64,000 nt of DNA from Candidatus Woesearchaeota archaeon CG10_big_fil_rev_8_21_14_0_10_45_16. GTDB taxonomy: Archaea; Nanobdellota; Nanobdellia; Woesearchaeales; GW2011-AR9. Of this stretch, positions 1 through 50,319 are shown piece by piece; positions within the stretch are counted from its first letter, which is position 1, and the number at the start of each line of letters is the position of its first letter. The notes beneath the pieces were generated by a model that saw only the letters and a program-made list of their open reading frames with translations, was not told the origin of the DNA and ran no database searches. Both the position numbers and the translations under genes were made by a program. The stretch spans positions 188,796 to 252,795 of the forward strand of contig PCXY01000005.1 in NCBI GenBank assembly GCA_002762785.1, given 5' to 3'.

Positions 1-4
1 TGAG

Positions 5-3570: not shown

Positions 3571-3581
3571 AAAAAGGAAAA

Positions 3582-4568: not shown

Positions 4569-4698
4569 TTTATATTCCTCCTAAACACCTACCCTCTGCT
4601 CAGCTTGAATCACGAGGAACCATTTATAAACATGATGGAACTGTGGTCTAAGATGCTTCCATAATTTATATAAACGACAGACCTTAAAATTCTCACAG

Positions 4699-6234: not shown

Positions 6235-6248
6235 TTATATATTTAACG

Positions 6249-6296
6249 AATTAGAGAATTAGAGAATTAGAGAATTAGAGAATTAGAGAATTAGAG
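6249..6296. repeat. Perfect tandem repeat (AATTAGAG)x6 ending 4 nt before the cmk ATG, in the divergent intergenic region
   Basis: The repeat is read directly from the sequence: 'aattagag' occurs six times with no mismatch. Confidence 0.95.
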
Positions 6297-6300
6297 AGAT

Positions 6301-7083: not shown

Positions 7084-7141
7084 ATCAATAGCCTGCCTGC
7101 TAAATTCTTTTTGATGGTTTGGTATCCCGCCAACTATCTCT

Positions 7142-8593: not shown

Positions 8594-9551
8594 CGTACTC
8601 ACCCCTGGCGATACGTTCCGATAACAGGCGTGAGCCTTCACGGTTTAGGTGTGTAAGGTCGGTGAAATATTCAGCAGAAAAATCGGTTTCGATGTTGACA
8701 AGCCTGAAGCCGATGATCTCTGACAATCCTTGGATGTAATCATTATACTGCTGAAGAGAATCGGCAGGAACAACGTTAAAGGTAATAGGATTCATCGGCA
8801 TCTGGACGACGACCACTTCGATACCTTCTGCTTTTAAAGAAGCGGTGAGATACGCAAATGCTTCCCTCTCTCTTCGCGGGTGATCACCAAAACTGAATAT
8901 GCCCAAGACTTTTGGATCCTGAAGCTTTTGTTCCAGTTCTTCCGCTGATTGGATATCCTCAAACTGATGGGGATTCTTTAGGTTGTTACCAGCAGGTACA
9001 ACAGCTTCCGAGGAAGAGGACCGGTGCAGGAAACTCAGGAAGTAAGGAAGGATGAATTTTCTTTTGTAAAGAAGACGCTGGAACCTGTTCATGGAGATCA
9101 GTTCCAGTTCGTCGCTATCTAGTCTCTCCAAAAGATAGGAAGAAGGGGTGACGGATGATGACATCAACATGAAGAAATCGTCGTTCTGGTTGATGGTCTC
9201 ATCAAATGATGCAGGAGTGATGCCGATCACGACCTTGCTTGGTCTAGCAGAGATTATCAAATCTTTCTGAAGAGCTACTTGGAACGGCCTCATGCCAGCT
9301 ACGCCTAGGTTGAAGCACGGCGGAGAATCTTTGAGAAGATCCTCGATGACCGTGCAGTCGACATCTTCCCTGATCTGGCTGTCCCCTACAAATAAGATAC
9401 TCCCGTCTGGAACTTCAGCATAAAGATGAAGAACCTCCACGAAATGATTGCCCTGAGCGCCGAACTGAGAGAAATTATAAGCGAAAGAGCAGTAGAGGCC
9501 GGTACTAAGAAGGACTGCCAACAATGGAAAAAACAGATACTTCAGGTTCAT
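8583..9551 (-). CDS. SGNH-hydrolase-like protein of the DltD/AlgX type
   Basis: An N-terminal hydrophobic anchor is followed by block I 'FVGDSQ' and block V 'DLTHLN'. Confidence 0.55.
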   Translation of the reverse strand: MNLKYLFFPLLAVLLSTGLYCSFAYNFSQFGAQGNHFVEVLHLYAEVPDGSILFVGDSQIREDVDCTVIEDLLKDSPPCFNLGVAGMRPFQVALQKDLIISARPSKVVIGITPASFDETINQNDDFFMLMSSSVTPSSYLLERLDSDELELISMNRFQRLLYKRKFILPYFLSFLHRSSSSEAVVPAGNNLKNPHQFEDIQSAEELEQKLQDPKVLGIFSFGDHPRREREAFAYLTASLKAEGIEVVVVQMPMNPITFNVVPADSLQQYNDYIQGLSEIIGFRLVNIETDFSAEYFTDLTHLNREGSRLLSERIARGEYDVI

Positions 9552-9659
9552 GCACCCTCAGGAATGGGGCCGATTTAAATATTTTTAGTTTTTAAAGGTA
9601 GTAACAAAAAAGGACCTTATTTCCTAAAGTTTAAAAAGGGCTGATCAGGTAAAGACAGT

Positions 9660-10103
9660 ATGCTTTTAGACCACATCAATAATCTTAAGAATTATTTTCA
9701 ACTAAACCCCAACCTGAAAGAAGCTCTGGCTTTTCTGCAAAGAGAAGATCTGGGTTCTTTAAGTCCAGGACGGCACGAGATCATGGACGACAAAGTTTTC
9801 GCCATCGTCATCGACTGTGACCAGATGCCGAAAGAGAACACGAAACCGGAAAGACACCGCAAGTATCTTGATCTTCATTACACTATCAAAGGGAATGATC
9901 TAGTCGGCTGGAAACCACTGCATCTCTGTTCTGCCAGCACCGAGTATGATGAACAGGACGACTACCAGCTGTTCAGCAATCTTCCAGAACAGTGGATAGA
10001 TGTGCCTGAAAATCATTTTATCCTTTTCTTCCCAGAAGATGTCCATGCCCCGCTCGCCGGAACTGGTCATCTTAAGAAAGTCGTCGTCAAAGTCAAGATT
10101 TAA
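9660..10103 (+). CDS. YhcH/YjgK/YiaL family protein (DUF386)
   Basis: The 147-aa protein has a YhcH-like beta-sandwich composition with motifs 'HRKYLDLHYTIKGND' and 'FPEDVHAP'. Confidence 0.55.
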   Translation: MLLDHINNLKNYFQLNPNLKEALAFLQREDLGSLSPGRHEIMDDKVFAIVIDCDQMPKENTKPERHRKYLDLHYTIKGNDLVGWKPLHLCSASTEYDEQDDYQLFSNLPEQWIDVPENHFILFFPEDVHAPLAGTGHLKKVVVKVKI

Positions 10104-10126
10104 ATTCATTTAATTTCGATACGCTG

Positions 10127-11227
10127 ATGTCATCAAGATCCAAAAAAATTCTTGGAAACCTGGCCATCTTTATAGTTGGAATTATCATCATCTTCAGTAT
10201 CGCGGAAATCACGGTCAGGGTCTTCAAACAGGATGAACTGGCTCCGGGCCTGTGGCCGGAAGAGAACACCAGATATGTTCCTGAGCTGAAGCGCAACCTT
10301 TACGTCAACATCAGCAATCTTACCAGGTCAACTTCTGAATACAGCTACCAAGTAAGTACTAATGAACAAGGTTTTCGGGACTTTCATCCAATCCTAAAAG
10401 ACGAAGAAACAACAAGGATACTAGGTCTGGGATCTTCTCAAACATTTGGCAACACCGTGGATGCGGACGATACTTACCTCAGCCTTCTAGGTAATGAGCT
10501 AGATGTCGAGACCATTAATCTCGGCCTGGGTGGGATCGGTCTGGATGAGATGAAGATTATCTTGCAGGAGTACGGCTTTTCTTATCAGCCGGACCTTATC
10601 ATCGTTGAGACTAGCTTGGGAAACTTCCAAAGCGGATCTGATTTTGCCCATAAGTCGGAGGCTTCGAGAGAAACTAAGAACAGCGCTTTTTTCTGGCTGT
10701 ATGAACATTCAAAACTGGTGAACCATCTTTATTGGCTGTCAAAGACCACCCATTTAGGAAGCAAGGTGGTAAACACTCTGAAACTAAACGAGCATACTCA
10801 AGACAGCGTCTCTTTTGAGCTCTCTCTTCTCAGGGGTGATGATGATCCCACTTTGTATGAAGCGAAGAAGAGCGTCTTCCGCAATCTTCAGGAGATCAAG
10901 AAGCTGGCTGATGAAAAAGAGGTTCCATTGATGGTTGTTTTTGTCTCTTCATCGTATCAGGTTGAACCAAAAAGGCTTCAAGCTCTCGTTGAAAAGTTTG
11001 GTCTTGCAGAAGAAGATGTCAATCCAGAAAACGCCGAAAATTTTTTCCGTGAAAGCTGTAAAAGGCTGAACATCCCCTTTTTCGAGACCACGGCAGCGCT
11101 CCAGGATCACCAGAAGGGGACTCCAGTTATCTGGAACTTTGACAATCATCTCACGCCAAGAGGTAATCAGATATATGCTTCAGAACTCGCAAAATTTATT
11201 AAAGAACATCATCTAATCGAAAGGTGA
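10127..11227 (+). CDS. Membrane-anchored SGNH/DltD-like protein
   Basis: An N-terminal TM helix is followed by 'ILGLGSSQTFG' and 'INLGLGGIG', which resemble SGNH motifs. Confidence 0.45.
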   Translation: MSSRSKKILGNLAIFIVGIIIIFSIAEITVRVFKQDELAPGLWPEENTRYVPELKRNLYVNISNLTRSTSEYSYQVSTNEQGFRDFHPILKDEETTRILGLGSSQTFGNTVDADDTYLSLLGNELDVETINLGLGGIGLDEMKIILQEYGFSYQPDLIIVETSLGNFQSGSDFAHKSEASRETKNSAFFWLYEHSKLVNHLYWLSKTTHLGSKVVNTLKLNEHTQDSVSFELSLLRGDDDPTLYEAKKSVFRNLQEIKKLADEKEVPLMVVFVSSSYQVEPKRLQALVEKFGLAEEDVNPENAENFFRESCKRLNIPFFETTAALQDHQKGTPVIWNFDNHLTPRGNQIYASELAKFIKEHHLIER

Positions 11228-11269
11228 ACCGATGATTTAGTGTCGGCAACAGGTTTAGAAAGATTTACC

Positions 11270-12196
11270 ATGGATAAAAAAGAACTATTGGAATATACTT
11301 TTCAAAAAATAGGTTCTCACATCGCGACGAGAGCCGTTCCAGCCAGACTGAACAACGATCCTGAATTTGATCCAGAAAAAGCAGCACAGATCTGCCATTG
11401 GCTGTACCGGCTAGGGGGCTGCGACCAGGCTCTTTATGATAAAGCTGTCAATGATTTCATAGACTATTCGCTGGAATTCCTAAAATTACAGGCGGAACTC
11501 GAGAGCGCCCAAAGATATCACTTTTCATCCTATAAAAAACTGCAGGAAGAGATCTATGAAAATCCAGAAGTGATGGAAAACCGGTATCTCAACGGGTTGT
11601 ATCTTACACAGGCCTTGTGGATAAACCACCACAAGATGCTGGCATTTTTCATCAAAAAGTTCTGCTCTGGTCTTGACGTTCAGGGAAAAGCAGTAGAAGT
11701 CCCGGTCGGTACCGGTATCTATGCAGCAGAATTCGCAGCAAGAAATAAAGATTGGCTGGTAGAAGGATATGATCTCAGCCCCAGTGCGGTTGATTATTCT
11801 AAAAAGATGATACCCATAATCTCGCCAGATAAAGAAGTCGCCGTATTTGAGAAGAATGTCTTTGACCTCCCTGACGACAAGAAGTATGACCGTATCATCT
11901 GCGGAGAATTGATGGAAAATTTTGAAGATCCCCATCCACTGCTAGAAAAGCTGGGAAAACTTCTCAACGAGGAAGGAAAGATCTTTCTCACCAGCTCCGT
12001 CTGGGCGGCGGCAATCGACCACATCTATCTCTTTACCAAAGTACAAGAACTGAGGGATGTCCTTTCTTCTCACTTTAAGATAGAGGAAGAACTGGCCCTC
12101 AATGTATTCCAAAACAAGAAGCCCGAAGATGAAAAGACACCGATAAATTATGCCTGTATCCTCAGCCGCCGGTCAGAAGAGCCATCTCAAGACTAA
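11270..12196 (+). CDS. Class I SAM-dependent methyltransferase
   Basis: The SAM-binding motif 'VEVPVGTGIYAAEFA' followed by 'EGYDLS' is present. The ATG start was chosen in place of the track's GTG at 11240. Confidence 0.65.
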   Translation: MDKKELLEYTFQKIGSHIATRAVPARLNNDPEFDPEKAAQICHWLYRLGGCDQALYDKAVNDFIDYSLEFLKLQAELESAQRYHFSSYKKLQEEIYENPEVMENRYLNGLYLTQALWINHHKMLAFFIKKFCSGLDVQGKAVEVPVGTGIYAAEFAARNKDWLVEGYDLSPSAVDYSKKMIPIISPDKEVAVFEKNVFDLPDDKKYDRIICGELMENFEDPHPLLEKLGKLLNEEGKIFLTSSVWAAAIDHIYLFTKVQELRDVLSSHFKIEEELALNVFQNKKPEDEKTPINYACILSRRSEEPSQD

Positions 12197-12228
12197 AAGA
12201 AAACTTCACAAGAGTTTCATCTATCAAA

Positions 12229-13773
12229 ATGATCAGATTAATCCAAGATTATTTCCAACTGTCAGCAGAACGCTCTCCAAAGAAAGTTGCAGTCGTCTAC
12301 GGTGAAGAGAAGATAACGTACAAAGATCTGGACAAAAAGAGCAACCAGTTGGCTCATCTTATCAGGTCGATCGGCGTGAAGAGAAACGACCGAGTAGCAT
12401 TCTGCCTGCATAAGTCGATCGATGCTATCGTTTCCATCCTTGCCATCTTAAGATCCGACTGCTGTTATGTTCCGATGGACGCTAAATCGCCGGAACAGCG
12501 GCTTCGGTATATCGTTGAAGACTGCCAGCCGGCAGTTATCATCTGCAGTCCCGAGACTCACGTTTCCGTGCAATCTTTAGTAGATGGTTGGATCTCAGGA
12601 AAAAGACCAATAGTGATCGTTCTCGGATCTGAGGAGATTGAGAGACAACAGGTGAGCCTGCCTCCAATAGGAAACATCCAGGATGACCTTGCCTACATCT
12701 TCTATACTTCTGGATCTACTGGGAAGCCGAAAGGAGTGATGATAACTCATGGCAATCTTATCAATTTTGTAGAGTGGGCTGCTGATTGTTTCCAGGTCGC
12801 TGAAGATGATATCATCGCCAACCATGCGCCGCTCCACTTTGACATTTCCGGGTTTGATATCTACGCATCGTTTAAGAAAGGGGCTACTCTAGTGTTAGTG
12901 CCGCCGGAACTTAGTCTATTTCCAGCAAAGATAGTCAACCTCATCGAACAAGAGAAGATCACTATCTGGCAGTCGGTTCCCAGCATCCTGGTGCATATGG
13001 CCAAGATGGGAGCGCTTCAAGAGAACACCATGCCCAGCCTGAAGAAGATCATCTTCATCGGCGAAGTCTTTCCCACACCCTTCCTTATCCGCTGGATGAA
13101 GACCTTCCCGAAGAAAGAATTCATCAACTTTTACGGTCCGACAGAATGCACCATCGGCTGTGCATATTATCCTATCAAAGAGGTTCCAGAGGATTCGACA
13201 ACCGCTATTCCTTTAGGAAGAGCAGCTAAAAACATGGAAATGTTCGCCCTGAAAGAAGATGACAGCCTGGCTAACGTTGGAGAAATAGGTGAGTTATGCA
13301 TCCGAGGGCCGACAGTGAGTCCCGGCTACTGGAACAATAAAGAGAAGACTGAGAAAGCGTTTGTGGTAGATCCGCTATTTCCCCATCTAAATGGAAAAAT
13401 CTATAAAACAGGAGACTTGGTAGAAGCCCTTCCTGAGGAGATGTTCACATTCAGAGGAAGAAAAGACAGCCAGATCAAGTTTATGGGATACCGGATCGAG
13501 CTGGGAGAGATAGAGTCAGCGTTATACTCCCTGGGATATGTTAAAGAAGCTGCAGTCATCTACTTGTCTTCAGATGAGAAAAGTGAGATTGTCGCCTTCG
13601 TGGCTCTAAATCGTGAGAGCAGCCCCGGACAGATAAAAGATGATCTGAAGAAGAAGATCCCTTCCTACATGATCCCCCGGACAATCACTATAAAAGATGC
13701 TCTTCCCCTCAACAGTTCAGGGAAGATAGACCGGGTAAAATTAAGACAGGAGTGCGAGAACGATGGAAACTAA
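12229..13773 (+). CDS. DltA-like adenylation enzyme (AMP-binding, carrier-protein ligase)
   Basis: The adenylation-domain motifs 'YTSGSTGKPKGV', 'YGPTE', 'YKTGD', 'GRKDSQIKFMGYRIELGEIE' and 'SGKIDR' are all present. Confidence 0.8.
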   Translation: MIRLIQDYFQLSAERSPKKVAVVYGEEKITYKDLDKKSNQLAHLIRSIGVKRNDRVAFCLHKSIDAIVSILAILRSDCCYVPMDAKSPEQRLRYIVEDCQPAVIICSPETHVSVQSLVDGWISGKRPIVIVLGSEEIERQQVSLPPIGNIQDDLAYIFYTSGSTGKPKGVMITHGNLINFVEWAADCFQVAEDDIIANHAPLHFDISGFDIYASFKKGATLVLVPPELSLFPAKIVNLIEQEKITIWQSVPSILVHMAKMGALQENTMPSLKKIIFIGEVFPTPFLIRWMKTFPKKEFINFYGPTECTIGCAYYPIKEVPEDSTTAIPLGRAAKNMEMFALKEDDSLANVGEIGELCIRGPTVSPGYWNNKEKTEKAFVVDPLFPHLNGKIYKTGDLVEALPEEMFTFRGRKDSQIKFMGYRIELGEIESALYSLGYVKEAAVIYLSSDEKSEIVAFVALNRESSPGQIKDDLKKKIPSYMIPRTITIKDALPLNSSGKIDRVKLRQECENDGN

Positions 13774-14020
13774 AGAGATAATAATTGATATCATCAAAGA
13801 ATTTAAGCAGAAAGACGAAATCCTGCATCCAGAGGAACTGATCAGCAGTGGTTTCTTTGATTCGTTTGATATCTTTTCATTGATCGAAAAGATTGAGAAG
13901 AGATTTTCTTTGAAACTGGATGGAAACGACATCACTATCGAGAATTTTGAAAACATCAGCACCATCTCGGCTATCGTTGAGAGATCCCTGAAAGGCAAAA
14001 GCGATGAGCAGCAGACCTAA
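13763..14020 (+). CDS. Small DltC-like carrier protein
   Basis: The 85-aa acidic protein carries a putative phosphopantetheine-attachment Ser in 'GFFDSFD'. Its start overlaps the upstream adenylase stop by 11 nt. Confidence 0.6.
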   Translation: METKEIIIDIIKEFKQKDEILHPEELISSGFFDSFDIFSLIEKIEKRFSLKLDGNDITIENFENISTISAIVERSLKGKSDEQQT

Positions 14021-14367
14021 TTGATGACCACGACAAAAGCCATGGCATTTTCATCAGTGTGAGAGATGCTGCAGAGAATATCTTTTCTCTCTTCTCCTTT
14101 TATGAAAACAGATGGTCTGCCAGTAGCATCATTGATGACTTCTATATCCAGTAGAGGGATTTTGGAGGAGATGTTTCTTGAAATGGCTTTTAACACTGCT
14201 TCTTTCACGCAGAACTTACCGGTAAGATGGATCGCAGGATCTACTTTGCTTCGGCAATAAGTGAGTTCCCTAGGCGTAAAAAGAAGAGAGAGGAAATGGT
14301 CGTCATCCAGTTTTTCTTTGAAGCGGCTGACTTTCTCGATATCTACTCCTATGTTTTGAAAAGACAT
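14017..14367 (-). CDS. acpS: Holo-ACP synthase (4'-phosphopantetheinyl transferase, AcpS type)
   Basis: The motifs 'GVDIEKVSRF' and 'KEAVLKA' match the AcpS pattern. The protein is 116 aa. Confidence 0.65.
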   Translation of the reverse strand: MSFQNIGVDIEKVSRFKEKLDDDHFLSLLFTPRELTYCRSKVDPAIHLTGKFCVKEAVLKAISRNISSKIPLLDIEVINDATGRPSVFIKGEERKDILCSISHTDENAMAFVVVIN

Positions 14368-14450
14368 ACCGCAGATATCTATGATCCCATTATAAAGATT
14401 GTTAAAGTAGGAACAAAAAATTTAAAAGGAACTTGGCAGACATAGGCAAT

Positions 14451-14588
14451 ATGGGAGCGATATGGGATTTCCTAAAAGTACGTAAGATCTGGTGGATAAC
14501 ACCGCTGGTTATTCTGGCGATTCTCTTAGCGTTTATGTTTCTGGCCGGAGGGAGCGCGCCGGTAACTGATGTCTACGCCCCCATTTAA
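14451..14588 (+). CDS. Putative 45-aa single-TM membrane peptide
   Basis: This is an ATG-started ORF, 'MGAIWDFLKVRKIWWITPLVILAILLAFMFLAGG', that is absent from the 60-aa ORF track. It is strongly hydrophobic. Confidence 0.3.
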   Translation: MGAIWDFLKVRKIWWITPLVILAILLAFMFLAGGSAPVTDVYAPI

Positions 14589-15445
14589 CTTACTCTATTT
14601 TTCTCCTGGATGAAACCGATCTGCTGTAGGATAAAGCTCATGCCCAAGAAGAAGATGATAAGAGGCAGACGCCAGTTGGTGATGTTGGCTTTGAGGATGT
14701 TTTTTGCTGACCAGAAACGTAACCTGATAAGACCGCCAACTTTCCCCACTTTTTTCTTAAACTGGTAATTAGCCTTGCCACGTCGCAGCTGCCATTTGAC
14801 AAAAGAAGAGAAGGTTGTTCTTGCTTCATGGAAAGCATAGCCTTCAGGAACATATTTTATTGGAATATGACTCTTTTCTATCCGCCATGACAACTCAGCA
14901 TCTTCCGCTCCTGATTTCATCGATTCATCGAAAAAGCCCACCTTCTCGAATAAAGATTTTCTTAAAGCGCAGTTTCCGGCTGCCAGATGGTTGGTGAAAC
15001 CTGACTTCGACACTTTCCACATCTTGCTGAAGCCGATACTGCCGCCGCCAGGAAATCCTAACGCAGAGATGCAGTCACCGATAAGGTTTGACTTTGGTAT
15101 CCTGGTGCCGCTGGTGACGGCCAATAGTGAAAGATCCTCCTCAAGAGGTTTTATCAAAGATGAAAGCCATCTTTCATGCACCCAACAGTCGTCATCGATA
15201 AAGACGATTATATCTCCCATCGCTCTTTTGATGCCTTGGTTTCGGTTGAAAGGGATCCCTCTTTTTGGCGGGACGTTGTAGTACTTTATGGGAAGCGGCA
15301 GCTGTGGAAGTGGCAGCGGTTCAACAGCTTCATGGATGAAGATGATCTCAGTATCAGGATTGACCTGTCCTTTCATCGAGTTCAACAACCTTCTGATCTT
15401 ACTCTCCCTGAACCTGTCAAAGATCACTACGATAGAAACTTTCAT
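14585..15445 (-). CDS. Family 2 glycosyltransferase (GT-A fold)
   Basis: The DxD motif 'IIVFIDDDCW' is present with a C-terminal TM segment. Confidence 0.7.
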   Translation of the reverse strand: MKVSIVVIFDRFRESKIRRLLNSMKGQVNPDTEIIFIHEAVEPLPLPQLPLPIKYYNVPPKRGIPFNRNQGIKRAMGDIIVFIDDDCWVHERWLSSLIKPLEEDLSLLAVTSGTRIPKSNLIGDCISALGFPGGGSIGFSKMWKVSKSGFTNHLAAGNCALRKSLFEKVGFFDESMKSGAEDAELSWRIEKSHIPIKYVPEGYAFHEARTTFSSFVKWQLRRGKANYQFKKKVGKVGGLIRLRFWSAKNILKANITNWRLPLIIFFLGMSFILQQIGFIQEKNRVS

Positions 15446-16731
15446 CTCCTTCCCATCCCGTGGTATTGGAACCCTTCTTCTTTGACCAGTTCAGGTTCAT
15501 AGATGTTGCGGCCGTCAAAGATACGCTTGGTTTTCATCTTGAGTTCTGAAAGGTTGACATTCCTGAACTCGTCCCATTCTGTTATGACCAAGATACCATC
15601 GCTGTCTTGGGCGGCTTCTTCCGCCGTGGCGCAGTAAGTTATAGAATCACCAAAAAAATGCTTGGCTTCTTCTACAGCTTTGGGATCATAGGCTCTTATC
15701 CTTGCGCCGTGTTTCAACAGTTCAGAGATGATGGTGATAGCAGGGGCTTCCCTCATGTCACTGGTATTGGGCTTGAACGCTAATCCCCAGACACAGAACG
15801 TTTTTCCGGTGATGTCGTTATTGGATGCAGCCAAGACCTTTTCGACAAGAACTGATTTCTGCCGATCATTGAGAGCCATCACTTCTTCAAATAATCTCGC
15901 TCTGTAGCCGACCTCTTTAGCCGTATGGGCCAGGGCCTTGACATCTTTGGGAAAACAGGATCCGCCGTAGCCCACGCCTGGATTAAGAAATCTCGGAGAG
16001 ATGCGGTAATCCATACCTAGAGCCATGGCCACCATCTTGACGTCAGCCCCAGTGCGGTCGCAGATGTTAGCTATCTCGTTGATGAATGAGATCTTTGTAG
16101 AAAGGAAACTGTTGTTGGCATATTTTATCAGCTCGGCGGTCTCCAAATCAGTCTCTACCACAGGAAGATAGGTCCTGAGCCGGCCGGAATAGACTTTTCT
16201 CATCAGATGGAAAGCTTGATCGTTGGCTGCGCCGACAACTATTTTATCAGGATAATTGAAAGCCCTGATTGCTAACCCTTCCCGCAAGAATTCTGGATTA
16301 GAGACAATATCGATATTTGCCGCAGGATTGATCTCTTTGATCATCTGCTGACATTTCCTGGCAGTTCCGGGAGGTACGGTGCTCTTGATGACCAGCAATT
16401 TTTTGCTGTCTGACCTGGCAGCAGCCTTGACGACCGAAAAGACGTACTCCAGATTAGCTGATCCGTCATCATTGCTTGGTGTGCCGACGCAGTTGAAGAT
16501 GACCTCTCCGAACGCAACGCCTTCATCGATGTTGGAGCTGAAATGAAGACGACTTTTGTTTCTGATGGTCAGCTCTTCCAGACCCGGCTCGTAGAAAGGG
16601 ATCTGACCTTCCTGCAGCGTCTTTATCTTTGCCGTATCTATATCGATGCAGAGAACCTGGTGGCCTAAATTGGCCAGGCAGGCACCGGTGACAAGACCGA
16701 CGTAACTGGTGCCGAAGATGCTTATTTTCAT
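15442..16731 (-). CDS. ugd: UDP-glucose 6-dehydrogenase
   Basis: The N-terminal Rossmann motif 'MKISIFGTSYVGLVTGACLA', the catalytic 'GGSCFPKD' and a full-length 429-aa architecture are present. Confidence 0.85.
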   Translation of the reverse strand: MKISIFGTSYVGLVTGACLANLGHQVLCIDIDTAKIKTLQEGQIPFYEPGLEELTIRNKSRLHFSSNIDEGVAFGEVIFNCVGTPSNDDGSANLEYVFSVVKAAARSDSKKLLVIKSTVPPGTARKCQQMIKEINPAANIDIVSNPEFLREGLAIRAFNYPDKIVVGAANDQAFHLMRKVYSGRLRTYLPVVETDLETAELIKYANNSFLSTKISFINEIANICDRTGADVKMVAMALGMDYRISPRFLNPGVGYGGSCFPKDVKALAHTAKEVGYRARLFEEVMALNDRQKSVLVEKVLAASNNDITGKTFCVWGLAFKPNTSDMREAPAITIISELLKHGARIRAYDPKAVEEAKHFFGDSITYCATAEEAAQDSDGILVITEWDEFRNVNLSELKMKTKRIFDGRNIYEPELVKEEGFQYHGMGRR

Positions 16732-16793
16732 GCTGTTTACCGTTAGAAGACCCCTTAAATACTTTGTGTAACAAAAATGACCAATCTAACCTC

Positions 16794-17525
16794 TTATTTT
16801 GCGTAGAAAAGATTAGCTTTTTCTAATGATTCAATGGTGCCAATGTCAAACCAATGTTCTGTGAAGATAAAACCATGTACTTCAGACACGTTTATTAGAT
16901 AGGGGATGATGTTGCCTGGAGCATCTCCGCCCTTTTCTTTTAATAAAATATCGATCTGTGGAAGATCCCCTTTAGTGAAGATGTAGCAAGCTGTAGACCC
17001 TAAGGCACTTTTTGGTTCAGACGGTTTTTCTTCAAAATTGATTACTTTGGTACCTTCGATGATACCGACTCCCAGACGACCTCTTACGATGTTAACATCA
17101 CCAAAGTCACGGAAAGCCACAATTGAAGTATTCTTTTCGTTGTAGAACTTAACAAAATTTTGTAAAGAGAAGCCAAAGAGATTGTCACCGGCGATGACCA
17201 ATAGATCATCATTGATGTTCTCAGTCTTTATGACATGATTGATGTCGCCAACGGAGCCGAGACGAGCTTCATTAGTCTTAGTATAATCGTTGATGATCTT
17301 GATCGGTTTGTCATAGGTGTAATGTTCTAACCAGTCCATGAAGTTGCTGTAGAACTTATCATTGGTCACTACATAGATGCTTTCCACATCATCAACTGCA
17401 GCTAATTTGTCCAAGATATATTCCATGAGAGGCTTATCAGCCACTTTTAGAAGTGGTTTAGGCGTGTTTTTTGTCAATGGATATAATCTGGTGGCGTATC
17501 CGGCTGCCAGGATCAATGCTTTCAT
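16794..17525 (-). CDS. Sugar-1-phosphate nucleotidyltransferase of the short glucose-1-P thymidylyl/uridylyltransferase form
   Basis: The N-terminal motif 'MKALILAAGYATRLYPLTKNTPKPLL' is characteristic of this family. Confidence 0.75.
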   Translation of the reverse strand: MKALILAAGYATRLYPLTKNTPKPLLKVADKPLMEYILDKLAAVDDVESIYVVTNDKFYSNFMDWLEHYTYDKPIKIINDYTKTNEARLGSVGDINHVIKTENINDDLLVIAGDNLFGFSLQNFVKFYNEKNTSIVAFRDFGDVNIVRGRLGVGIIEGTKVINFEEKPSEPKSALGSTACYIFTKGDLPQIDILLKEKGGDAPGNIIPYLINVSEVHGFIFTEHWFDIGTIESLEKANLFYAK

Positions 17526-18841: not shown

Positions 18842-20017
18842 ATGCTTATGAAAACGGTGGTCGTATCAGGATACTTTAACCCTATCCATAGAGGTCATGT
18901 CTCTTTATTCAAAGAAGCCCGTAAATTAGGCGAAAAGTTGATCGTCATCGTCAACAATGATAAACAGGTTCTGATAAAAGGTTCTCAAGCTTTCATGGAT
19001 GAAGAAGAGAGGAAATACATCCTCGAATCCATCCGTTATGTGGATGAAGTGGTCGTTTCCATCGATGAGGACGGCACCCAATGCAGGACTTTAGAGATGC
19101 TCAAGCCCGATATCTTTGCCAACGGCGGAGACAGGAAAAATACCAGTGATATCCCGGAAGCCAAGGTCTGCGAAAGATTAGGCATCCAGATGATCTTCAA
19201 CGTCGGCGGCGACAAGACCCAGAGCAGCAGCTGGCTGTTAGGCAGTGTCAAAGGACCTTCAATTCTCGATGAATACGATCAGACCAAGCATGGTGACAAA
19301 AAAGTCCTGATCGCGGATGTGGACGAGACCATCTGCGAGACCTGTCAGGAGATATCATCGGAGATGGCGGTCGAGATAGATCGGTTGGTAAAACAAGGCT
19401 ATACCTGGGCCTTCATCAGCGGCACCAAAGTTGATGACTTGCAGAAGATGATCTCCTCCAAAGTGAAAGAAGAACATCATCTATTAGCGACGACCGGCAC
19501 CAATTATGTGAAAGTAACTCCTCAAGGAAATGATCTTATCTATCAACAATCTTTCTCCACTGAACAAAAGCAAGAGATCATGGCAGCGTTAGACAAGGTG
19601 ATCACCCATTTCGACATAAGGGCCATGACCACCAAAGAAGACCAGGTCCAAGATAGGGATTCACAGATCACCTTATCTGCTATCGGCAGAAATGCGCCTA
19701 TAGAACTAAAGAAACAATATGATCCAGATGGTGAGAAACGAAAAGTCTGGATAGGATATCTGCAAGATCTTCTTGGAGATAGATATGATTACAAGATCGG
19801 CGGTACTACCTCTTTAGACATCACCCAGAAAGGCTTAGACAAAGAATGGGGTATCAAAGAGTTTGCTAAACAGAACAACATCCTTTTGAAAGAGATTTTA
19901 TTCTTTGGTGACAAGATCTATCCCGGCGGCAACGATTACCCTGCTTCCAAGATAGTTGATTGCATCGCTGTCAAGAATCCGGAAGATACGTTAAGAGAGT
20001 TGAGGAAGATACCATGA
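18842..20017 (+). CDS. Bifunctional protein with an N-terminal RfaE-II/TagD-like nucleotidyltransferase domain (HxGH) and a C-terminal HAD-superfamily phosphatase domain
   Basis: The nucleotidyltransferase motif is 'VVSGYFNPIHRGHV'. HAD motif I is 'LIADVDETICET'. Confidence 0.6.
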   Translation: MLMKTVVVSGYFNPIHRGHVSLFKEARKLGEKLIVIVNNDKQVLIKGSQAFMDEEERKYILESIRYVDEVVVSIDEDGTQCRTLEMLKPDIFANGGDRKNTSDIPEAKVCERLGIQMIFNVGGDKTQSSSWLLGSVKGPSILDEYDQTKHGDKKVLIADVDETICETCQEISSEMAVEIDRLVKQGYTWAFISGTKVDDLQKMISSKVKEEHHLLATTGTNYVKVTPQGNDLIYQQSFSTEQKQEIMAALDKVITHFDIRAMTTKEDQVQDRDSQITLSAIGRNAPIELKKQYDPDGEKRKVWIGYLQDLLGDRYDYKIGGTTSLDITQKGLDKEWGIKEFAKQNNILLKEILFFGDKIYPGGNDYPASKIVDCIAVKNPEDTLRELRKIP

Positions 20018-23117: not shown

Positions 23118-23279
23118 TTACGGTTTCTTCAATCTTGGCAGCACCCAATAGGCAAACACGGCAGCCACCACGATCACGCTCCAGAAGACGATATCTGGAA
23201 TCAAGCGTAATGCAAAAAGGATCAGATTAGCGATAATGACGATCAAAAAAAAGATGCCGATAACTTTAGCCGGTTTCAT
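23118..23279 (-). CDS. Putative 53-aa two-TM membrane peptide translationally coupled to hisS
   Basis: Its ATG overlaps the hisS stop as ATGA. The hydrophobic sequence is 'MKPAKVIGIFFLIVIIANLILFALRLIPDIVFWSVIVVAAVFAYWVLPRLKKP'. It is absent from the ORF track because it is shorter than 60 aa. Confidence 0.3.
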   Translation of the reverse strand: MKPAKVIGIFFLIVIIANLILFALRLIPDIVFWSVIVVAAVFAYWVLPRLKKP

Positions 23280-24607
23280 CCTAGTCTCTTGATAACGTCT
23301 TTAACGCTCAACACTTGTTCAGTGCCGTCAGTCATGTTCCGGAGTACAACTTTCTTCTTCTTCAGCTCGTCTTCACCGAGGATGAGGGCATAAGGGATGC
23401 CGACAGAACCGGCATATTCCAGATTCTTGCTGACGCCTTTCCTGAAGGCAAAGTCAACATTGATACCGGCTTCCCGTAGTTCCTTCGCCATCTTTAACGA
23501 TTCAGTCATCGTATTGATAGGGATCACATACACTTGAGCTGTTGTCCTTTTCTGAAAACCTTCCTTCTCCTTCAACACTTCCATCAGTGGAACCAGACCG
23601 AAAGCGATACCTACTGCCGGTGTATCTCGGCCGGAGAACTTGCCGATCATGTCATCCCATCTGCCGCCGGCTGCCAGAGAAGAGGTGATGGAACTCTTCT
23701 TGGCAAAGGCTTCATAGACCGTACCAGTGTAATAGGCTAATCCTCTAGCAAGAGAAACATCAAACTTGACAGTTGAAACTCCCATCACTTTCAGATACGA
23801 GAACAGTTCTTCCATCTCAGCAATACCTTGCTGCGCTTCTTCATTCTTGATCTTTTTTAAAGTCTTGAGAGTAGCTTTCTCGGTAACATAGGAAAACAGC
23901 GCATCGGTCTGTTTCTTAGAATAACCACGCTGTTTCAGCTCTTCAGAAACACCGCCCTTACCGATCTTGTCTAACTTGTCGATGGCGACGATGGCCGACC
24001 CTTTATCTTTTATCCCGGCTTCCTCAAGAATACCATTTAAGATCATTCTATTATTTACCTTGATGACAACATCCATGCTCAGATCATTGAAGACCTTTTC
24101 AGCTATCGCCAGCAGTTCCGCTTCCGCCAGCATCGACTTTACGCCGATAGTGTCAGCATCACACTGCCAGAACTGCCGCACCCGGCCTTTCTTGATCGGC
24201 CCGTCTCTGAAGACCGGACCCATCTCATACCTCTTGAACGGTAATTTCAGCATCGGATTAGCAGCCATATATCTTGCTAACGGAACCGTCAGGTCGAAAC
24301 GCAATCCTAATTTCCGGTTGCCTTGATCCTTCAGCTTGAAGATCTCTTTCAGAGCGTCGGAAGATTCACCGGCAGCAAATTTAGCAGCCAGGGTTTCATA
24401 GCGTTCGATGATCGGTGTCTCCAACGGCGCGAAGCCATACGATTCAAAAGCCGATCTGATGGTGTTCACTACTTTGTTCTGCATGATCTTCTCTTCCGGC
24501 GAGATGTCTGAAACCCCCTTAGCTGTCTGAAAGTCCATTTTCCTATCCTCGATGATTGTTTTGGTGTTTATAAGGTTTTTTCCGTCAAGTTTCATTTTTA
24601 CCTCCAT
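23276..24607 (-). CDS. hisS: Histidyl-tRNA synthetase
   Basis: Class II aaRS motifs with HisRS-specific 'AAGGRWD' are present, as is a C-terminal anticodon-binding domain. An alternative start lies 4 codons in at 24595. Confidence 0.85.
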   Translation of the reverse strand: MEVKMKLDGKNLINTKTIIEDRKMDFQTAKGVSDISPEEKIMQNKVVNTIRSAFESYGFAPLETPIIERYETLAAKFAAGESSDALKEIFKLKDQGNRKLGLRFDLTVPLARYMAANPMLKLPFKRYEMGPVFRDGPIKKGRVRQFWQCDADTIGVKSMLAEAELLAIAEKVFNDLSMDVVIKVNNRMILNGILEEAGIKDKGSAIVAIDKLDKIGKGGVSEELKQRGYSKKQTDALFSYVTEKATLKTLKKIKNEEAQQGIAEMEELFSYLKVMGVSTVKFDVSLARGLAYYTGTVYEAFAKKSSITSSLAAGGRWDDMIGKFSGRDTPAVGIAFGLVPLMEVLKEKEGFQKRTTAQVYVIPINTMTESLKMAKELREAGINVDFAFRKGVSKNLEYAGSVGIPYALILGEDELKKKKVVLRNMTDGTEQVLSVKDVIKRLG

Positions 24608-25756: not shown

Positions 25757-25810
25757 AAAGGAAAGAAAACCAGTATTTAAAACATTCGTTTACAGGATAG
25801 AGATAAAGAG

Positions 25811-25898
25811 GGCAGCTGGGGGGAATCGAACCCCCTCCACAGGTTTGCTGCAACCTAACTCCACAGACCCGTATACTAGCCGTTATACTACAGCCGCC
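25811..25898 (-). tRNA. tRNA-His (anticodon GUG) with a genomically encoded G-1 and a 15-nt intron after position 37
   Basis: The T-arm 'GGGGG TTCGATT CCCCC' is intact and the acceptor stem GCGGCTG pairs with CAGCTGC. G-1 opposes the C73 discriminator, which is the His identity element. The anticodon loop reads 'CTGTGGA', and the 3' half 'ACCTG' pairs with 'CGGGT' after removal of 'AGTTAGGTTGCAGCA' (about 25846-25860). CCA is not encoded. Confidence 0.65.
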
Positions 25899-25943: not shown

Positions 25944-27377
25944 TCAGATCACCAGCACTTTCTGCTCTCTGACCACTTTCAGGCTCAGTCTCTTAGTATA
26001 ACCAAGGAACTCGCCACCAGCCTGCAAAGGAAACGGCTTCTTGGCAGTGATCTCGATCTTCCTGCCGTGGACCAACACCAGCGGGGCTATCTTTAGACCG
26101 AAACTAGGCAGTATCAATGACCAAAGGCGCACCAGCTTGTTGGACACAGAAAGGTGAGTATTGATGCAGGCTGCCGCATAGATCTGCTTCTCAGCAGGCC
26201 GCATTCGCCCAGGATACCAACGCAGACCGAAACCGTAATAGGGATGGGTGCCCAGGATGACATTGACTACATTGTTCCAATTCTGCTTCCTGCCATCGAC
26301 CTTACAGACAAAATCATATCTCCCCGGAGCGTGCCACAAAGCTTTCCAGCTGCCACGCATGTAATCAAGGAACCCGTTCTGCGACCTTCTGACCCCGAAG
26401 CGGATGACGTCAGCATCGATGCCGATGGAAAGGAACGTCGTCTGTCTTTTGCCACGATCCCATTCGATCTCAGCGACGTTAAGAACATCTTCTTGGAACC
26501 TGAAACGAGAGCGAAGGTATTCGAAACGCTTTCCTTTATAGAAGTAAGAATAATAGGCATTTCCTGCCCCTAGAGGAAAGAAACCCAGAAAATTCTTCTG
26601 CAGCGGCTTATGGTTAAGAGCGCTTTCAAACGAACCGTCGCCGCCAGCGATGATCACATGCGGTGTCGTCTTTTTCTCAACACCTTTGAACATATCACTT
26701 TTTTTAGACAGGAACAATAAAGAAGCATTCCTTCTCCGTGAGAACAGGTAAAGAAGCCTTCTCCGATACCCGTCATGGAAACCGCGGGAACGGTTGTTGG
26801 CCAGGATCGTCAACGGCACTTTAAGAGCAACTTTTCCATGACGTCTTTGACTCAGAGCTTTACCATAACCATGAAAGTAATAGATGATCGATGAAAGAGC
26901 GACTATCAGGGCGACGATGATCACGATGTCTTGCAGCAGTATCAAAAAGGAAAGAGCCGGCCTTTGATCTTGCATCAAGTACTGGTTAAAGAAAATCAGT
27001 ATCAGTATCAAGTATTGAAAACCCACTAAAACTTTCCCATAGATCTCTCCAGGAACCTCTACATCTTCCTGGCCGGCCAGCCAGCGGATGACACCGACAA
27101 AAACGTCGCGGAAAGCGAAGAACAACAGAAAATATACTGAAAAATGTCCTAAAGCCGTGAACGTTGTCAGTAGACCGATCACCAGCAGCTTATCGGCAAA
27201 CGGATCGTAGAAAGAACCTACATCATGGGTAAAGATGAGGTTATCGATGACATCGGACAGGACGGCTAGGAGCATGATAGCCAAAGCCAGCAAAGAAGAC
27301 AGTGGCGTCTGTTGCAGCACCAGATATATCAATAAAGGCAAGGCCAGGAAACGGAATGCCGTGATGATCGATGCCAT
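25944..27377 (-). CDS. Fusion of an N-terminal divergent CDP-alcohol phosphatidyltransferase-like membrane domain with a C-terminal diacylglycerol/lipid kinase catalytic domain
   Basis: The N-terminal TM region carries 'SDVIDN...DPFADK'. The C-terminal DAGK_cat motif is 'VIIAGGDGSFESALN'. Confidence 0.55.
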   Translation of the reverse strand: MASIITAFRFLALPLLIYLVLQQTPLSSLLALAIMLLAVLSDVIDNLIFTHDVGSFYDPFADKLLVIGLLTTFTALGHFSVYFLLFFAFRDVFVGVIRWLAGQEDVEVPGEIYGKVLVGFQYLILILIFFNQYLMQDQRPALSFLILLQDIVIIVALIVALSSIIYYFHGYGKALSQRRHGKVALKVPLTILANNRSRGFHDGYRRRLLYLFSRRRNASLLFLSKKSDMFKGVEKKTTPHVIIAGGDGSFESALNHKPLQKNFLGFFPLGAGNAYYSYFYKGKRFEYLRSRFRFQEDVLNVAEIEWDRGKRQTTFLSIGIDADVIRFGVRRSQNGFLDYMRGSWKALWHAPGRYDFVCKVDGRKQNWNNVVNVILGTHPYYGFGLRWYPGRMRPAEKQIYAAACINTHLSVSNKLVRLWSLILPSFGLKIAPLVLVHGRKIEITAKKPFPLQAGGEFLGYTKRLSLKVVREQKVLVI

Positions 27378-27418
27378 GACATCTCAGAAAATAATCTTGC
27401 TTAAAAATGTTTCAGTTC

Positions 27419-29038
27419 TCACATCATGTCAGCCGGTGATCTTCTTTCCAGCTTTTTCTCAGGAGAACCGCCTAGGATGACGTCATCTATCCGCAGGATC
27501 ATCTCGGCCACGGCAGTGGCACTGGACAAAGCCTGCGTCTTTATTTTAAGAGGTTCGATGACACCAGAAAGCCAAGCGTCCATGGTCTTGCCGCTGAAGA
27601 CATCGATGCCGATCCAGCGCTGCTGCTGGTCATGGGCTGAACGGAGCATCGTCAGGACATCGATCGGATCAAGGCCGGCGTTCTCGGCCAAGGTTCTGGG
27701 GATAACTTCCACCGCTTCAGCATACGCCTGCACGGCCAACTGCTCACGGCCTTGCAATGAGGCAGCATATGACCGCAGCCCTTTAGCCAGTTCCATCTCG
27801 ACGGAACCTGCTCCGCCGACGACAAACCCGTCTTTGACAGCGGCAGCGATATCACCAAGAGCATCAGTCACGGCCCGCTTCACTTCATCAGCGACGTGTT
27901 CAGTGCCACCGCGAACCAACAAAGTGACCGCTTTAGGATTCTTGCAGCGTTTGACGAAGATCATCTCTTCATCACCGATCTTCTCTTCATAGACAGAGCC
28001 GGCAAAGCCCAGATCCAAAGATGATAACTCTTTCCAGTTGCTGACGATCCTGGCTCCAGTGGCCCGGTTCAGCTTTTCCATGTCGCTTTTCTTTACCCGA
28101 CGGACGGCAAGGATGCCTGCTTTAGAAAGAAAATGCTGGGCCATGTCGTCGATGCCCCGCTGGCAGAATACAACCTTGGCTCCGCTGGCGATAATCTTGT
28201 CTGCGATCATCTTCAATGTCCTTTCCTCCTGATCGAGAAAAGCGTTAAGCTGCGAAGGATCGGTGATCTGGATCTTGGCATCGATCTCTGTATTGCGGAT
28301 CTCCAACGGACAATCCAATAAAGCGATGCCTGCATCATTGACAGTTTCCGGCATGGAAGGATGGACCCGTTCCTTGTCCAAGACAATTCCGTCGACAAGC
28401 TCGCTCTTGTCAGAACTTTCACCGACGATCCGCTCTACTTTGATATCAGCCAGGTCGACGATGATCTTACCATCTTTCCGTTCAGCGATACTGCTGACGG
28501 CTTTTACAGCGAGAGAAGCAAGATGATCCCGATTTGCTTCTGCTCCTTTGCCAGTCATGGCGGTGACTGCGATACTGTTCAATAAGTCAGGCTGATCCAA
28601 TGAAACTTTTTCAGCGATGTTCTTAAGGATCCTTTGAGCTTCCGCTTCGGCTAACCTGTATCCTTTGGCCAGCACCGTCGGATGGATCTCCTGATCAAGA
28701 AGATCCTCAGCTTTCTTCAGAAGTTCGCCGGCCAGGACTACAGCAGTCGTCGTGCCGTCACCGACAGCCGCTTCCTGCGTCTTTGCTATCTCTACCACCA
28801 TCTTGGCAGCAGGATGCTCGATCTGCATCTCTTCCAGGATGGTCACGCCGTCGTTGGTCACGATGACATCACCGCTTTGATCGACGATCATCTTGTCCAT
28901 GCCCTTTGGCCCCAGAGTTGTACGTACGGTCTGAGCCACCGCTTTCGCCGCGGCGATGTTGTTGCGCTGAGCATCCCTTCCAGTAGTTCTCTTGGTATCT
29001 TCCGGCAGAATGTATATAGGTTGGACGTTATTAGACAT
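27419..29038 (-). CDS. ths: Thermosome subunit (group II chaperonin)
   Basis: The 'GPKGMDKM' and 'NDGVTIL' motifs and the full chaperonin architecture are present. The ATG start at 29038 is preceded by GGTGGGGG, whereas the track start at 29050 is a GTG. Confidence 0.9.
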
Positions 29039-29087
29039 ATTTACCCCCACCTCCTCCGGGAGAAAACGATTTTATAAAGATTATGGT

Positions 29088-45036: not shown

Positions 45037-45264
45037 ATGAACATTATCATCTATACCAGCCCCTCTGACCAATGGTCAGCTGAACTAAAAACTTTCCTCA
45101 AGAAGAAAAAGCTCCAATTTGAAGAGAGGGAAGTCATGGAAGAACATCCTTTCTGGGGCGAAGTTTTGCAGAAGACCGACCAGTTAAGCACCCCGGTCAT
45201 CGATATTGACGGCACCATCATCGTCGGCTTCGATAAAGAACGGATTGAGAAAGCCCTTAGTTGA
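45037..45264 (+). CDS. Glutaredoxin-fold protein lacking the CxxC active site
   Basis: 'IIIYTSPSDQWS' sits where a CPxC motif is expected, and the thioredoxin-fold spacing with 'TPVIDIDG' is retained. A TATA box 'aaagtatatataaac' lies about 25 nt upstream. Confidence 0.5.
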   Translation: MNIIIYTSPSDQWSAELKTFLKKKKLQFEEREVMEEHPFWGEVLQKTDQLSTPVIDIDGTIIVGFDKERIEKALS

Positions 45265-48042: not shown

Positions 48043-48088
48043 TATCGCCTCTTTTTAAGAAAATAGAATACGCTGGTATATAAAAAGC

Positions 48089-48910: not shown

Positions 48911-49031
48911 GGGATTGATTATTGATTTGCCACTATATAAAGCCTACCCCAACTTGACCAGTGCGTCCAGTGCTTTATAAATAACCGTCTGAAACTAAAG
49001 AATTTGGAAGATAGAAGCCCTCTAGCACTGG

Positions 49032-50234: not shown

Positions 50235-50290
50235 CTCTTTCTTACAAAATATTGTTATATATAAAATATTCTGTTTTCGTGAAGACAAAT

Positions 50291-50298: not shown

Positions 50299-50319
50299 TC
50301 TGCTCTTTTCAGTCTAGAT

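Follow-up and report, generated by a model that had tools for sequence, protein, structure and literature searches.

The 64,000-nucleotide stretch of Candidatus Woesearchaeota archaeon CG10_big_fil_rev_8_21_14_0_10_45_16 analysed here (the window) carries a gene on its minus strand for a protein in which a membrane domain of the PgsA type is joined to a lipid kinase of the DAGK/SphK type. We regard this architecture as almost certainly genuine, and the explanation to which we give about an even chance is that of a lipid kinase anchored by a PgsA-derived module that would no longer transfer head groups but would still bind lipid. The open reading frame (ORF) starts with ATG and encodes 477 residues plus a stop; the product is identical to the hypothetical protein P0001 of Candidatus Woesearchaeota archaeon CG10_big_fil_rev_8_21_14_0_10, whose gene lies on a contig of 568 kb. 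With 215 homologs and 73 species-level loci, it is a conserved gene and no chance ORF. Its parts are as follows.

25944..27377, minus strand: whole gene, PgsA-like membrane domain plus DAGK/SphK-type lipid kinase, as given in the ORF list
26850..27377, minus strand: PgsA-like CDP-alcohol phosphotransferase membrane domain of six helices, predicted N-in/C-in (residues 1-176)
26823..26849, minus strand: linker rich in Lys and Arg between transmembrane helix 6 (TM6) and the kinase domain (residues 177-185), delimited by the secondary structure of the AlphaFold2 model, pLDDT ~78-82
25947..26822, minus strand: lipid-kinase fold, a DAGK_cat-like alpha/beta domain and a YegS_C-like beta-sandwich, predicted to be cytoplasmic (residues 186-477)

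An earlier reading made from the sequence alone (the sequence-only reading) had proposed a CDP-OH phosphotransferase-like N terminus and a DAG/lipid-kinase C terminus, and the domain scan that it named as the test upholds both assignments. The N-terminal half matches Pfam CDP-OH_P_transf (PF01066) over residues 2-160 with 58 bits against a cutoff of 22, and the same family is matched by all 44 relatives sampled. The C-terminal half is itself sub-threshold for DAGK_cat (PF00781; 20.2 bits against 23.6) and YegS_C (PF19279; 18.7 against 27) and matches the lipid kinase PRK13057 profile with 28 bits (residues 234-471); among the relatives, DAGK_cat is found at E <= 0.01 in 44 of 44 (best E 4.6e-10) and YegS_C in 26 of 44. 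The two strings quoted in that reading are present, SDVIDNLIFTHDVGSFYDPFADK at residues 41-63 and AGGDGS at residues 244-249. An AlphaFold2 model built with the 44 homologs (pLDDT 88.6, pTM 0.83) agrees at the level of fold: six long helices (residues 2-176) lead through a short linker into a unit made of an alpha/beta domain and a beta-sandwich (residues 182-477), with the interdomain cleft of two-domain lipid kinases. In this model the short linker and the pTM suggest a fixed relative arrangement of the two domains. An NAD kinase identity was ruled out by the fold scores.

The membrane half has the six-transmembrane-helix fold of CDP-alcohol phosphotransferases, with the active site placed on the cytoplasmic face. 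The family profile matches Staphylococcus aureus PgsA (SaPgsA, 7drj) with an E value of 2.4e-15, while the NCBIfam pgsA model (TIGR00560) gives 58.6 bits and thus misses the equivalog level, which is set at 109.1; the profile of the cardiolipin synthase ClsA gives 25 bits on the same half. Topology was assigned from homology to PgsA together with the positive-inside distribution of Lys and Arg, taken as means over 120 homologs. The loops assigned to the inside carry 3.4 (TM2-3), 1.6 (TM4-5) and 6.2 (the segment past TM6) such residues, and those assigned to the outside 0.2 (TM1-2), 0.5 (TM3-4) and 0.4 (TM5-6), which amounts to ~11.2 inside against 1.1 outside. The topology check suggested in the sequence-only reading therefore returns a predicted N-in/C-in protein with a cytoplasmic kinase and, since the catalytic cavity of PgsA opens to the cytoplasm (PMC8640168), both active sites would lie on one side of the membrane.

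Mean pairwise identity is 55.6% over the kinase (residues 186-477) and 35.6% over the membrane domain (residues 1-176), the kinase half thus being, judged by residue identity, the constrained part of the fusion; these values are the same in subgroups with a canonical and with a degenerate transferase signature. Stretches conserved to at least 95% are LANxxSRGY, YRRRLL, AGGDGSFE and LGFFPLGAGNAxYSYFY.G.RFEYLRSRF. They can be set against the motifs of sphingosine kinase 1 (SK1), namely 21-LNPRGG, 79-SGDGLMHE, 110-GSGN and 340-VDGE, of which D341 and E343 are predicted Mg ligands by analogy to DgkB (PMC4466670).

26781..26804, minus strand: kinase motif 1, LANNRSRG (residues 192-199), corresponding to SK1 21-LNPRGG-26 and YegS ILNGKS
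26625..26648, minus strand: kinase motif 3, AGGDGSFE (residues 244-251), the GGDG nucleotide-binding/catalytic loop, aligned to GGDGT of BmrU and YegS
26559..26576, minus strand: kinase motif 4, PLGAGN (residues 268-273), corresponding to SK1 GSGN
26010..26021, minus strand: AGGE (residues 453-456) in place of the V-D-G-E of motif 5, in ungapped register with the C terminus of E. coli YegS

The ATP-pocket motifs 1, 3 and 4 are all retained. All 44 aligned sequences have N194, which at least 95% of the 120 homologs also keep, and G245, G246, D247, G248, E251, G270, G272 and N273 are likewise invariant among the 44; the acidic residue found in the nearest outgroups lies one helix position later than E251. 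Motif 5 is different. As the profile-sequence alignment of the family to YegS reached only the part from GGDG to the beta-sandwich, the register was set by direct ungapped comparison of the C termini and checked with hmmalign on 150 representatives. The C-terminal strands pair ungapped with those of E. coli YegS (FNLDGEPLSGQNFHIEIL / PLQAGGEFLGYTKRLSLKV), which puts YegS FNLDGEPL opposite PLQAGGEFL of the fusion protein and A453-G454-G455-E456 on V-D-G-E. The Mg-binding Asp is thus Gly and the D-G-E motif is absent, while E456 is kept in at least 90% of the 44-sequence alignment and is E or D in every representative. An exhaustive HMMER search with a profile of the kinase alone, run against 1.84 billion representatives, yielded 1832 matches at E <= 1e-3, 35 of them at E <= 1e-30. 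Among representatives scoring at least 190 bits the Asp position is occupied by Gly in 23, Ala in three and Asp in none, whereas in weaker DAGK/YegS-like matches it is Asp in 66 of the 78 with a residue aligned there; on these counts, replacement of the motif-5 Asp by Gly or Ala is clade-defining.

The loss of this Asp throughout the clade speaks for a reading in which the protein transfers no phosphate at all and is a pseudokinase or a structural protein. It would then bind lipid, act as a scaffold or regulate, in a role comparable to that of the acylglycerol kinase AGK, whose part in the TIM22 complex does not depend on its kinase activity. AGK as a TIM22 subunit (7cgp) is indeed among the structural neighbours, and a chaperonin gene adjoins the fusion gene in most species. 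We nevertheless consider this improbable. The invariance of N194, G245-G246-D247-G248, E251, G270 and G272-N273, and the near-invariance of E456, would be uncommon in an inactive enzyme; the GDG-loop Asp, which lies in the ATP pocket of SK1 and whose mutant is inactive (PMC4466670), is retained in the fusion protein; and the adjacency to the chaperonin (thermosome) gene resembles conserved gene order, with a predicted promoter of its own for the fusion gene.

In the membrane half, the canonical signature of the transferase superfamily is D-x2-D-G-x2-A-R-x8-G-x3-D-x3-D (x7-9 was allowed when assigning membership). In the fusion protein it reads D42-x2-D45-N46-x2-F49-T50-x3-G54-x3-D58-x3-D62.

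27192..27254, minus strand: degenerate transferase signature (residues 42-62), with residue roles taken from SaPgsA structures (PMC8640168)

In SaPgsA, D57, D60, D78 and D82 ligate two metals and each Asp-to-Ala mutant is inactive, G61, A64, R65 and G74 line the CMP pocket, and activity is dramatically or completely lost in G61S and impaired in the lipidic phase in R65A (PMC8640168). All four metal-binding Asp (D42, D45, D58 and D62) are kept in the fusion protein, and three of the four CMP-pocket residues are lost, G61, A64 and R65 being replaced by N46, F49 and T50; the TM2-3 loop is also five residues shorter than the canonical one. The sequence-only reading was thus right to call the motif degenerate. 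The family consensus retains the canonical SDxLDGxxARx8GSFLDPFADK, and the strict signature is found in 51 of the 120 homologs and in 17 of the 73 species loci. Retention over the 120 is 94 for the first Asp, 81 for the second, 63 for the Gly, 62 for the Ala, 77 for the Arg, 73 for the second Gly, 82 for the third Asp and 120 for the fourth; among the 69 degenerate members the first seven of these positions are kept in 43, 30, 12, 11, 26, 22 and 31, respectively. The fourth Asp, D62, is therefore the sole metal-binding Asp that is invariant across the family.

By parsimony on a neighbour-joining tree of the kinase domain alone, there were some 14 or more changes between canonical and degenerate states, a rough estimate. 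One large clade carries a consistent alternative motif, D..GK...SF[LI]HPFSDK, and the fusion protein's own subclade shows varied, progressive decay (P0003-P0007, P0015 and P0105), with G to N as the lone departure from the canonical signature in its closest relative, P0002. The signature appears dispensable across the family, and transferase activity has probably gone from the fusion protein and from most of its relatives. One metagenome-assembled genome (MAG), SMAG_U8050, holds two copies of the fusion gene on separate contigs (L020 and L049), by true paralogy or by strain mixing in the bin. A division of labour between a canonical and a degenerate copy in one MAG was discarded there, both copies having the degenerate 'HP/YP' form.

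The same residues bear on the reading of the fusion as a true bifunctional enzyme, in which both halves are catalytic and lipid phosphorylation is coupled to head-group transfer from or to a CDP-activated intermediate; one such route would run from archaeol to archaetidic acid and, after CDP activation, to archaetidylglycerol phosphate. The N-terminal domain folds as PgsA does and exceeds the Pfam cutoff, the fusion protein has all four metal-ligand Asp, P0002 is a single change from canonical, and the complete eight-residue signature in 51 of 120 relatives makes an active transferase a very probable ancestor; fusion implies functional coupling. What speaks against it is the N, F and T in place of the CMP-pocket G, A and R, at positions whose mutation in SaPgsA is damaging as described above, the shortened loop, and the progressive and varied decay among subclade relatives, which is expected under relaxed selection; a CDP-archaeol synthase for the intermediate step was also not seen within the 64-kb window. 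We therefore judge a bifunctional enzyme unlikely. The coupling of phosphorylation and head-group transfer put forward in the sequence-only reading remains plausible for motif-intact members and is poorly supported in the fusion protein, where the CMP pocket is lost.

The other side of the same site shows a different pattern. In SaPgsA, K83, R110, R118, K137 and Y181 hold the 3'-phosphate of bound phosphatidylglycerol phosphate (PGP), with S177 nearby (PMC8640168). Equivalent residues were assigned from profile alignments to 7drj and the residue map in PMC8640168.

26889..27191, minus strand: span of the pocket residues K63, R90, D91, R98 and S163 (SaPgsA K83, R110, E111, R118 and S177)

These columns are kept in 115-118 of the 120 homologs (D91 in 114). 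Their retention in the 69 degenerate members, with the fourth Asp included, is as follows.

D62 (SaPgsA D82): 69 of 69
K63 (SaPgsA K83): 68 of 69
R90 (SaPgsA R110): 67 of 69
D91 (SaPgsA E111): 64 of 69, with Glu in four more
R98 (SaPgsA R118): 68 of 69
S163 (SaPgsA S177): 69 of 69
Y167 (SaPgsA Y181): 46 of 69, partly conserved
L117 (SaPgsA K137): not conserved

Going by these patterns, the nucleotide side of the transferase site appears dispensable and the head-group phosphate side does not. Chiefly because the phosphate side is kept where the nucleotide side is lost, we think that the membrane module would still bind an anionic lipid head group and would not be an inert anchor.

This is the evidence that counts most against another possibility, in which the protein is a core-lipid salvage kinase that phosphorylates a neutral lipid (archaeol, diacylglycerol or a monoalkyl- or monoacyl-glycerol) as DgkB and AGK do, and the N-terminal domain has no ligand role. 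Its closest folds (SphK1, DgkB and AGK) act on neutral lipid alcohols, stand-alone kinases of the same clade that have no membrane domain (P0134, P0139, P0142 and P0148) indicate that the kinase is workable without the module, and enzymes of this class are known to require recruitment to the membrane (PMC11962490). On the other hand, D62, K63, R90, D91, R98 and S163 are kept at ~95-100% in lineages that have lost the rest of the active site. A six-helix, enzyme-derived domain would moreover be a costly anchor next to that of AGK, which is a single N-terminal helix and no enzyme-derived six-helix domain. A passive anchor is, in our view, rather unlikely.

We favour instead the following arrangement, in which a cytoplasmic kinase of the DAGK/SphK/YegS type would be joined by a linker of about ten residues to a six-helix module descended from a PgsA-type CDP-alcohol phosphotransferase. 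The module would have lost its CMP-binding pocket and probably stopped transferring head groups, while keeping the fourth Asp and the basic pocket for the terminal phosphate of a phosphatidylglycerol-phosphate head group. It could thus serve both to tether the kinase at the cytoplasmic membrane face and to bind and present an anionic glycerolipid head group to the kinase, or to hold the phosphorylated product. The kinase itself would work with a modified active site that has Gly for the motif-5 Asp but retains GGDG, GxGN and the Asn of motif 1. Kinase activity, transferase loss, substrate and a salvage role are what we infer here, whereas the architecture, conservation patterns, folds, topology and phyletic distribution are shown by the results above and below. 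As a precedent for the tethering role, soluble DgkB depends on a membrane protein, GdpS, for the orientation of its active site at the bilayer, and the catalytic residues of GdpS are not needed for this (PMC11962490).

Our favoured guess at the substrate, a doubtful one, is a lipid of the archaetidylglycerol or phosphatidylglycerol type, since this would be compatible with the retained PGP pocket; archaeol or diacylglycerol and polyprenol are the alternatives. Phosphatidylglycerol kinase activity has been reported for E. coli YegS (PMC12673472). Biologically, the protein would help to recycle or remodel the membrane of an organism believed to take its lipids from a host, which is plausible because DPANN archaea, including Woesearchaeota, are reported to be without most lipid-synthesis genes (PMC6470261). 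Lipid core-synthesis genes were not found within the 64-kb window, which says little about the whole genome.

Several observations weigh against the anchored, lipid-binding kinase that we favour. The motif-5 Asp, a presumed Mg ligand of SK1 and DgkB (PMC4466670), is absent, and the kinase could be inactive or could use other chemistry. Having kept all four metal-binding Asp, the fusion protein might retain metal-dependent chemistry in which the donor is something other than a CDP-lipid. Finally, the PGP pocket is incomplete at the K137 and, in part, the Y181 equivalents, and the conserved basic residues could reflect the structure of the CDP-alcohol phosphotransferase fold and not ligand contacts.

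A bolder extension, which we raise as quite improbable, is a DPANN-specific lipid-remodelling machine that would need neither CTP nor CDP-archaeol synthase. Scavenged archaetidylglycerol would be converted to archaetidylglycerol phosphate by the kinase inside the PgsA-derived pocket, and the PgsA domain of motif-intact members would then run in reverse with CMP to give CDP-archaeol, the universal head-group donor; motif-less lineages would keep the kinase step alone and accumulate a PGP-type lipid. If true, a defined role would for the first time be assigned to an archaeal DAGK-type lipid kinase, and the reworking of host lipids by lipid-auxotrophic symbionts would have a concrete enzyme.

Both domains come from well-known superfamilies, some members are labelled automatically with both names (in JGI, 'phosphatidylglycerophosphate synthase/diacylglycerol kinase family enzyme'), and the protein is a fold-level member of both; it misses, however, the PgsA signature and equivalog score and is without motif 5 of characterised lipid kinases. 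Compared with PgsA (7DRJ/7DRK; the archaeal counterpart is Ags), the fusion differs in the G61/A64/R65 replacements, the shorter TM2-3 loop and the unconserved K137 equivalent, adds a 300-residue C-terminal kinase and belongs to a family of which more than half is without the signature motif. Sphingosine kinase 1 (3VZB/3VZD/4L02/4V24) shares 13-15% sequence identity with the fusion kinase, has VDGE where the fusion has AGGE, and is soluble and peripheral, whereas a polytopic membrane domain is attached to the fusion kinase; an archaeon is not expected to contain sphingolipids. DgkB, YegS and BmrU (2QV7, 2BON/2JGR and 3T5P) are soluble and have DGE in motif 5, while the fusion falls below the Pfam and NCBIfam thresholds and its clade has extra conserved Arg residues (R205, R206, R216, R284, R289, R291, R386, R417 and R470). 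Mitochondrial AGK (7CGP) is eukaryotic and, beyond the fold, unrelated in sequence.

An architectural parallel is with IPCT-DIPPS and AF2299-type proteins, in which a CDP-alcohol phosphotransferase is joined to a cytoplasmic domain; the AF2299 chimeras 5D91/5D92 are among the matches of the family profile. The likeness lies in an archaeal CDP-alcohol phosphotransferase membrane domain combined with a cytoplasmic enzyme or accessory domain. There, however, the partner is an N-terminal cytidylyltransferase-type domain that makes the CDP-alcohol donor, whereas here a lipid kinase of the ATP type takes its place, at the C terminus, and many members have lost the transferase motif. In the searchable literature we found no description of the fusion or of an archaeal DAGK-type lipid kinase, in keeping with the sequence-only reading, which knew the architecture from no characterised enzyme; a 2022 review of archaeal phospholipid synthesis mentions no such kinase, and Woesearchaeota hypothetical proteins with a CAP motif are mentioned in passing in PMC8141893.

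DPANN archaea, Woesearchaeota among them, are believed not to make membrane lipids of their own and to draw them from hosts (PMC6470261). For the way in which they then maintain or remodel a membrane, the fusion gene offers a concrete, clonable candidate: a conserved, single-copy-looking, order-wide gene for a predicted membrane-embedded lipid kinase. It also presents a CDP-alcohol phosphotransferase domain that has repeatedly become an apparent non-catalytic lipid-binding anchor with the head-group phosphate pocket kept, and a whole DAGK/SphK-type clade without the motif-5 Asp, which is relevant to how this medically important enzyme family achieves catalysis.

The 215 homologs were recovered by a word-indexed search. 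The top 120 are nearly all 476-491 residues long with 41-53% identity and come, where the source is named, from Woesearchaeota or Nanoarchaeota MAGs. The search of other archaea for the fusion and its neighbourhood, also suggested in the sequence-only reading, gave 73 loci in a scan of one genome per GTDB species, all from Woesearchaeota/Nanoarchaeota-type MAGs and with conserved gene order; the fusion is a core gene of Woesearchaeales. Many TPA-assembled MAGs with a Woesearchaeales-type gene block (L001, L007, L009-L013 and others) bear the title 'uncultured Methanosarcinales archaeon', which looks like a placeholder or a wrong taxon label.

In most species the gene lies in a housekeeping block of HerA, signal-peptide peptidase (SPP), a metallo-beta-lactamase-fold (MBL) gene, thermosome, fusion, tRNA-His and histidyl-tRNA synthetase (HisRS). 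The thermosome gene is upstream on the same strand in 56 of the 73 loci and HisRS downstream in 47; MBL is present in 41, SPP in 29 and HerA in 19. A lipid operon was considered and set aside, as the neighbours are housekeeping genes. In the window, the immediate surroundings are these.

27419..29050, minus strand: thermosome gene, separated from the fusion gene by a 41-nt gap
27401..27407, minus strand: TTTTTAA, a TATA-box-like element read from the sequence, 23 nt 5' of the ATG and within the 41-nt gap past the thermosome stop
25810..25897, minus strand: tRNA-His(GTG), 88 nt, between the fusion gene and the gene of a 227-residue membrane protein
23276-24607: histidyl-tRNA synthetase gene, with tRNA-His 1.2 kb upstream

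The predicted promoter element TTTTTAA suggests that the fusion gene has its own promoter and a leaderless mRNA. An element TTTAAATAA stands ahead of the tRNA-His(GTG) gene.

This neighbourhood bears on the suggestion of the sequence-only reading that the fusion may relate to the envelope-polymer anchor, and so on the possibility that the protein belongs to an envelope-polymer (teichoic-acid-like) pathway and makes or phosphorylates the lipid anchor of the polymer. The window does hold, at 1-17.5 kb, a Dlt-like set (MBOAT, DltD-like and AMP-binding proteins) with cytidylyltransferases, a cytidylate kinase and a second CDP-alcohol phosphotransferase. That cluster, however, is 9-25 kb away in a separate gene block, and what has been kept across the 73 loci is the set of housekeeping neighbours (thermosome, HisRS, MBL and SPP, at the counts given above). 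The one cluster-side gene tested, a CTP_transf-PMM fusion, is nearby in 10 of 73, and the wide distribution of the fusion already suggests that it is present regardless of a Dlt-like cluster. The two do not travel together, and we consider the link very improbable.

Related architectures occur outside the main family. Stand-alone proteins fall within the same kinase clade, four of ~285 residues (P0134, P0139, P0142 and P0148) and three of ~325 (P0137, P0138 and P0147); the contig of P0134, the only one examined among them, is archaeal. A 188-residue unannotated ORF just 5' of P0134 on two contigs was considered as a detached membrane domain of a split gene and rejected: it has one N-terminal helix and an hhalign probability of 0.2% against the family's N-terminal domain. 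A rare, divergent second clade of PgsA-kinase fusions of ~428 residues, with three representatives found (P0155, P0157 and P0270), combines a transferase motif close to the canonical one (DG..SR) with 'AGD' at motif 5; the P0155 gene lies at L075:6001-7287 on an archaeal 1.56-Mb contig.

Elsewhere in the window, the following genes were noted.

5458-6234, minus strand: stand-alone CDP-alcohol phosphotransferase, 258 residues, Pfam 35.5 bits
1-17525: envelope-polymer-like cluster, unusual in an archaeon
7142-8641: MBOAT protein, DltB-like
8583-9551: DltD-like protein
10127-11227: SGNH/AlgX-like protein
12229-13773: AMP-binding enzyme, DltA-like, followed by an 85-residue ORF, a possible carrier protein
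5-2896, plus strand: 963-residue protein of unusual architecture, with cytidylyltransferase-like, pyruvate-phosphate-dikinase N-terminal (ATP-grasp) and PEP-utilising mobile domains
18842-20017, plus strand: 391-residue cytidylyltransferase-like plus phosphomannomutase/HAD fusion, near the lipid-kinase fusion in only 10 of 73 loci
52764-54986, minus strand: 740-residue fusion of dihydroorotase (Amidohydro_1) and dihydroorotate dehydrogenase (DHO_dh)
45257-50588: large ORFs with no Pfam match (296, 632 and 518 residues) around a BRO-N domain protein (48089-48910)
51449-52267, plus strand: TrmB-family regulator whose C-terminal part has a weak PLD-like (PLDc_2) match

The stand-alone phosphotransferase at 5458-6234 retains D..DG..AR-x8-G intact, with the third Asp changed to Glu and the fourth to Leu (DHVDGNLARMTGRFSMLGSYLEQLAL), a degeneracy opposite in kind to that of the fusion family, in which the fourth Asp is invariant; its gene and the end of a gene for a MobA-like nucleotidyltransferase overlap, and a cytidylate kinase gene adjoins it. 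The surrounding cluster at 1-17525 resembles a system of the D-alanylation/teichoic-acid type and also encodes a methyltransferase, a GT2 protein, a UDP-glucose dehydrogenase and two nucleotidyltransferases. The run at 45257-50588 may be a mobile or viral remnant. The dihydroorotase-dihydroorotate dehydrogenase gene adjoins genes for an orotate phosphoribosyltransferase-like protein and OMP decarboxylase, together forming a compact pyrimidine cluster.

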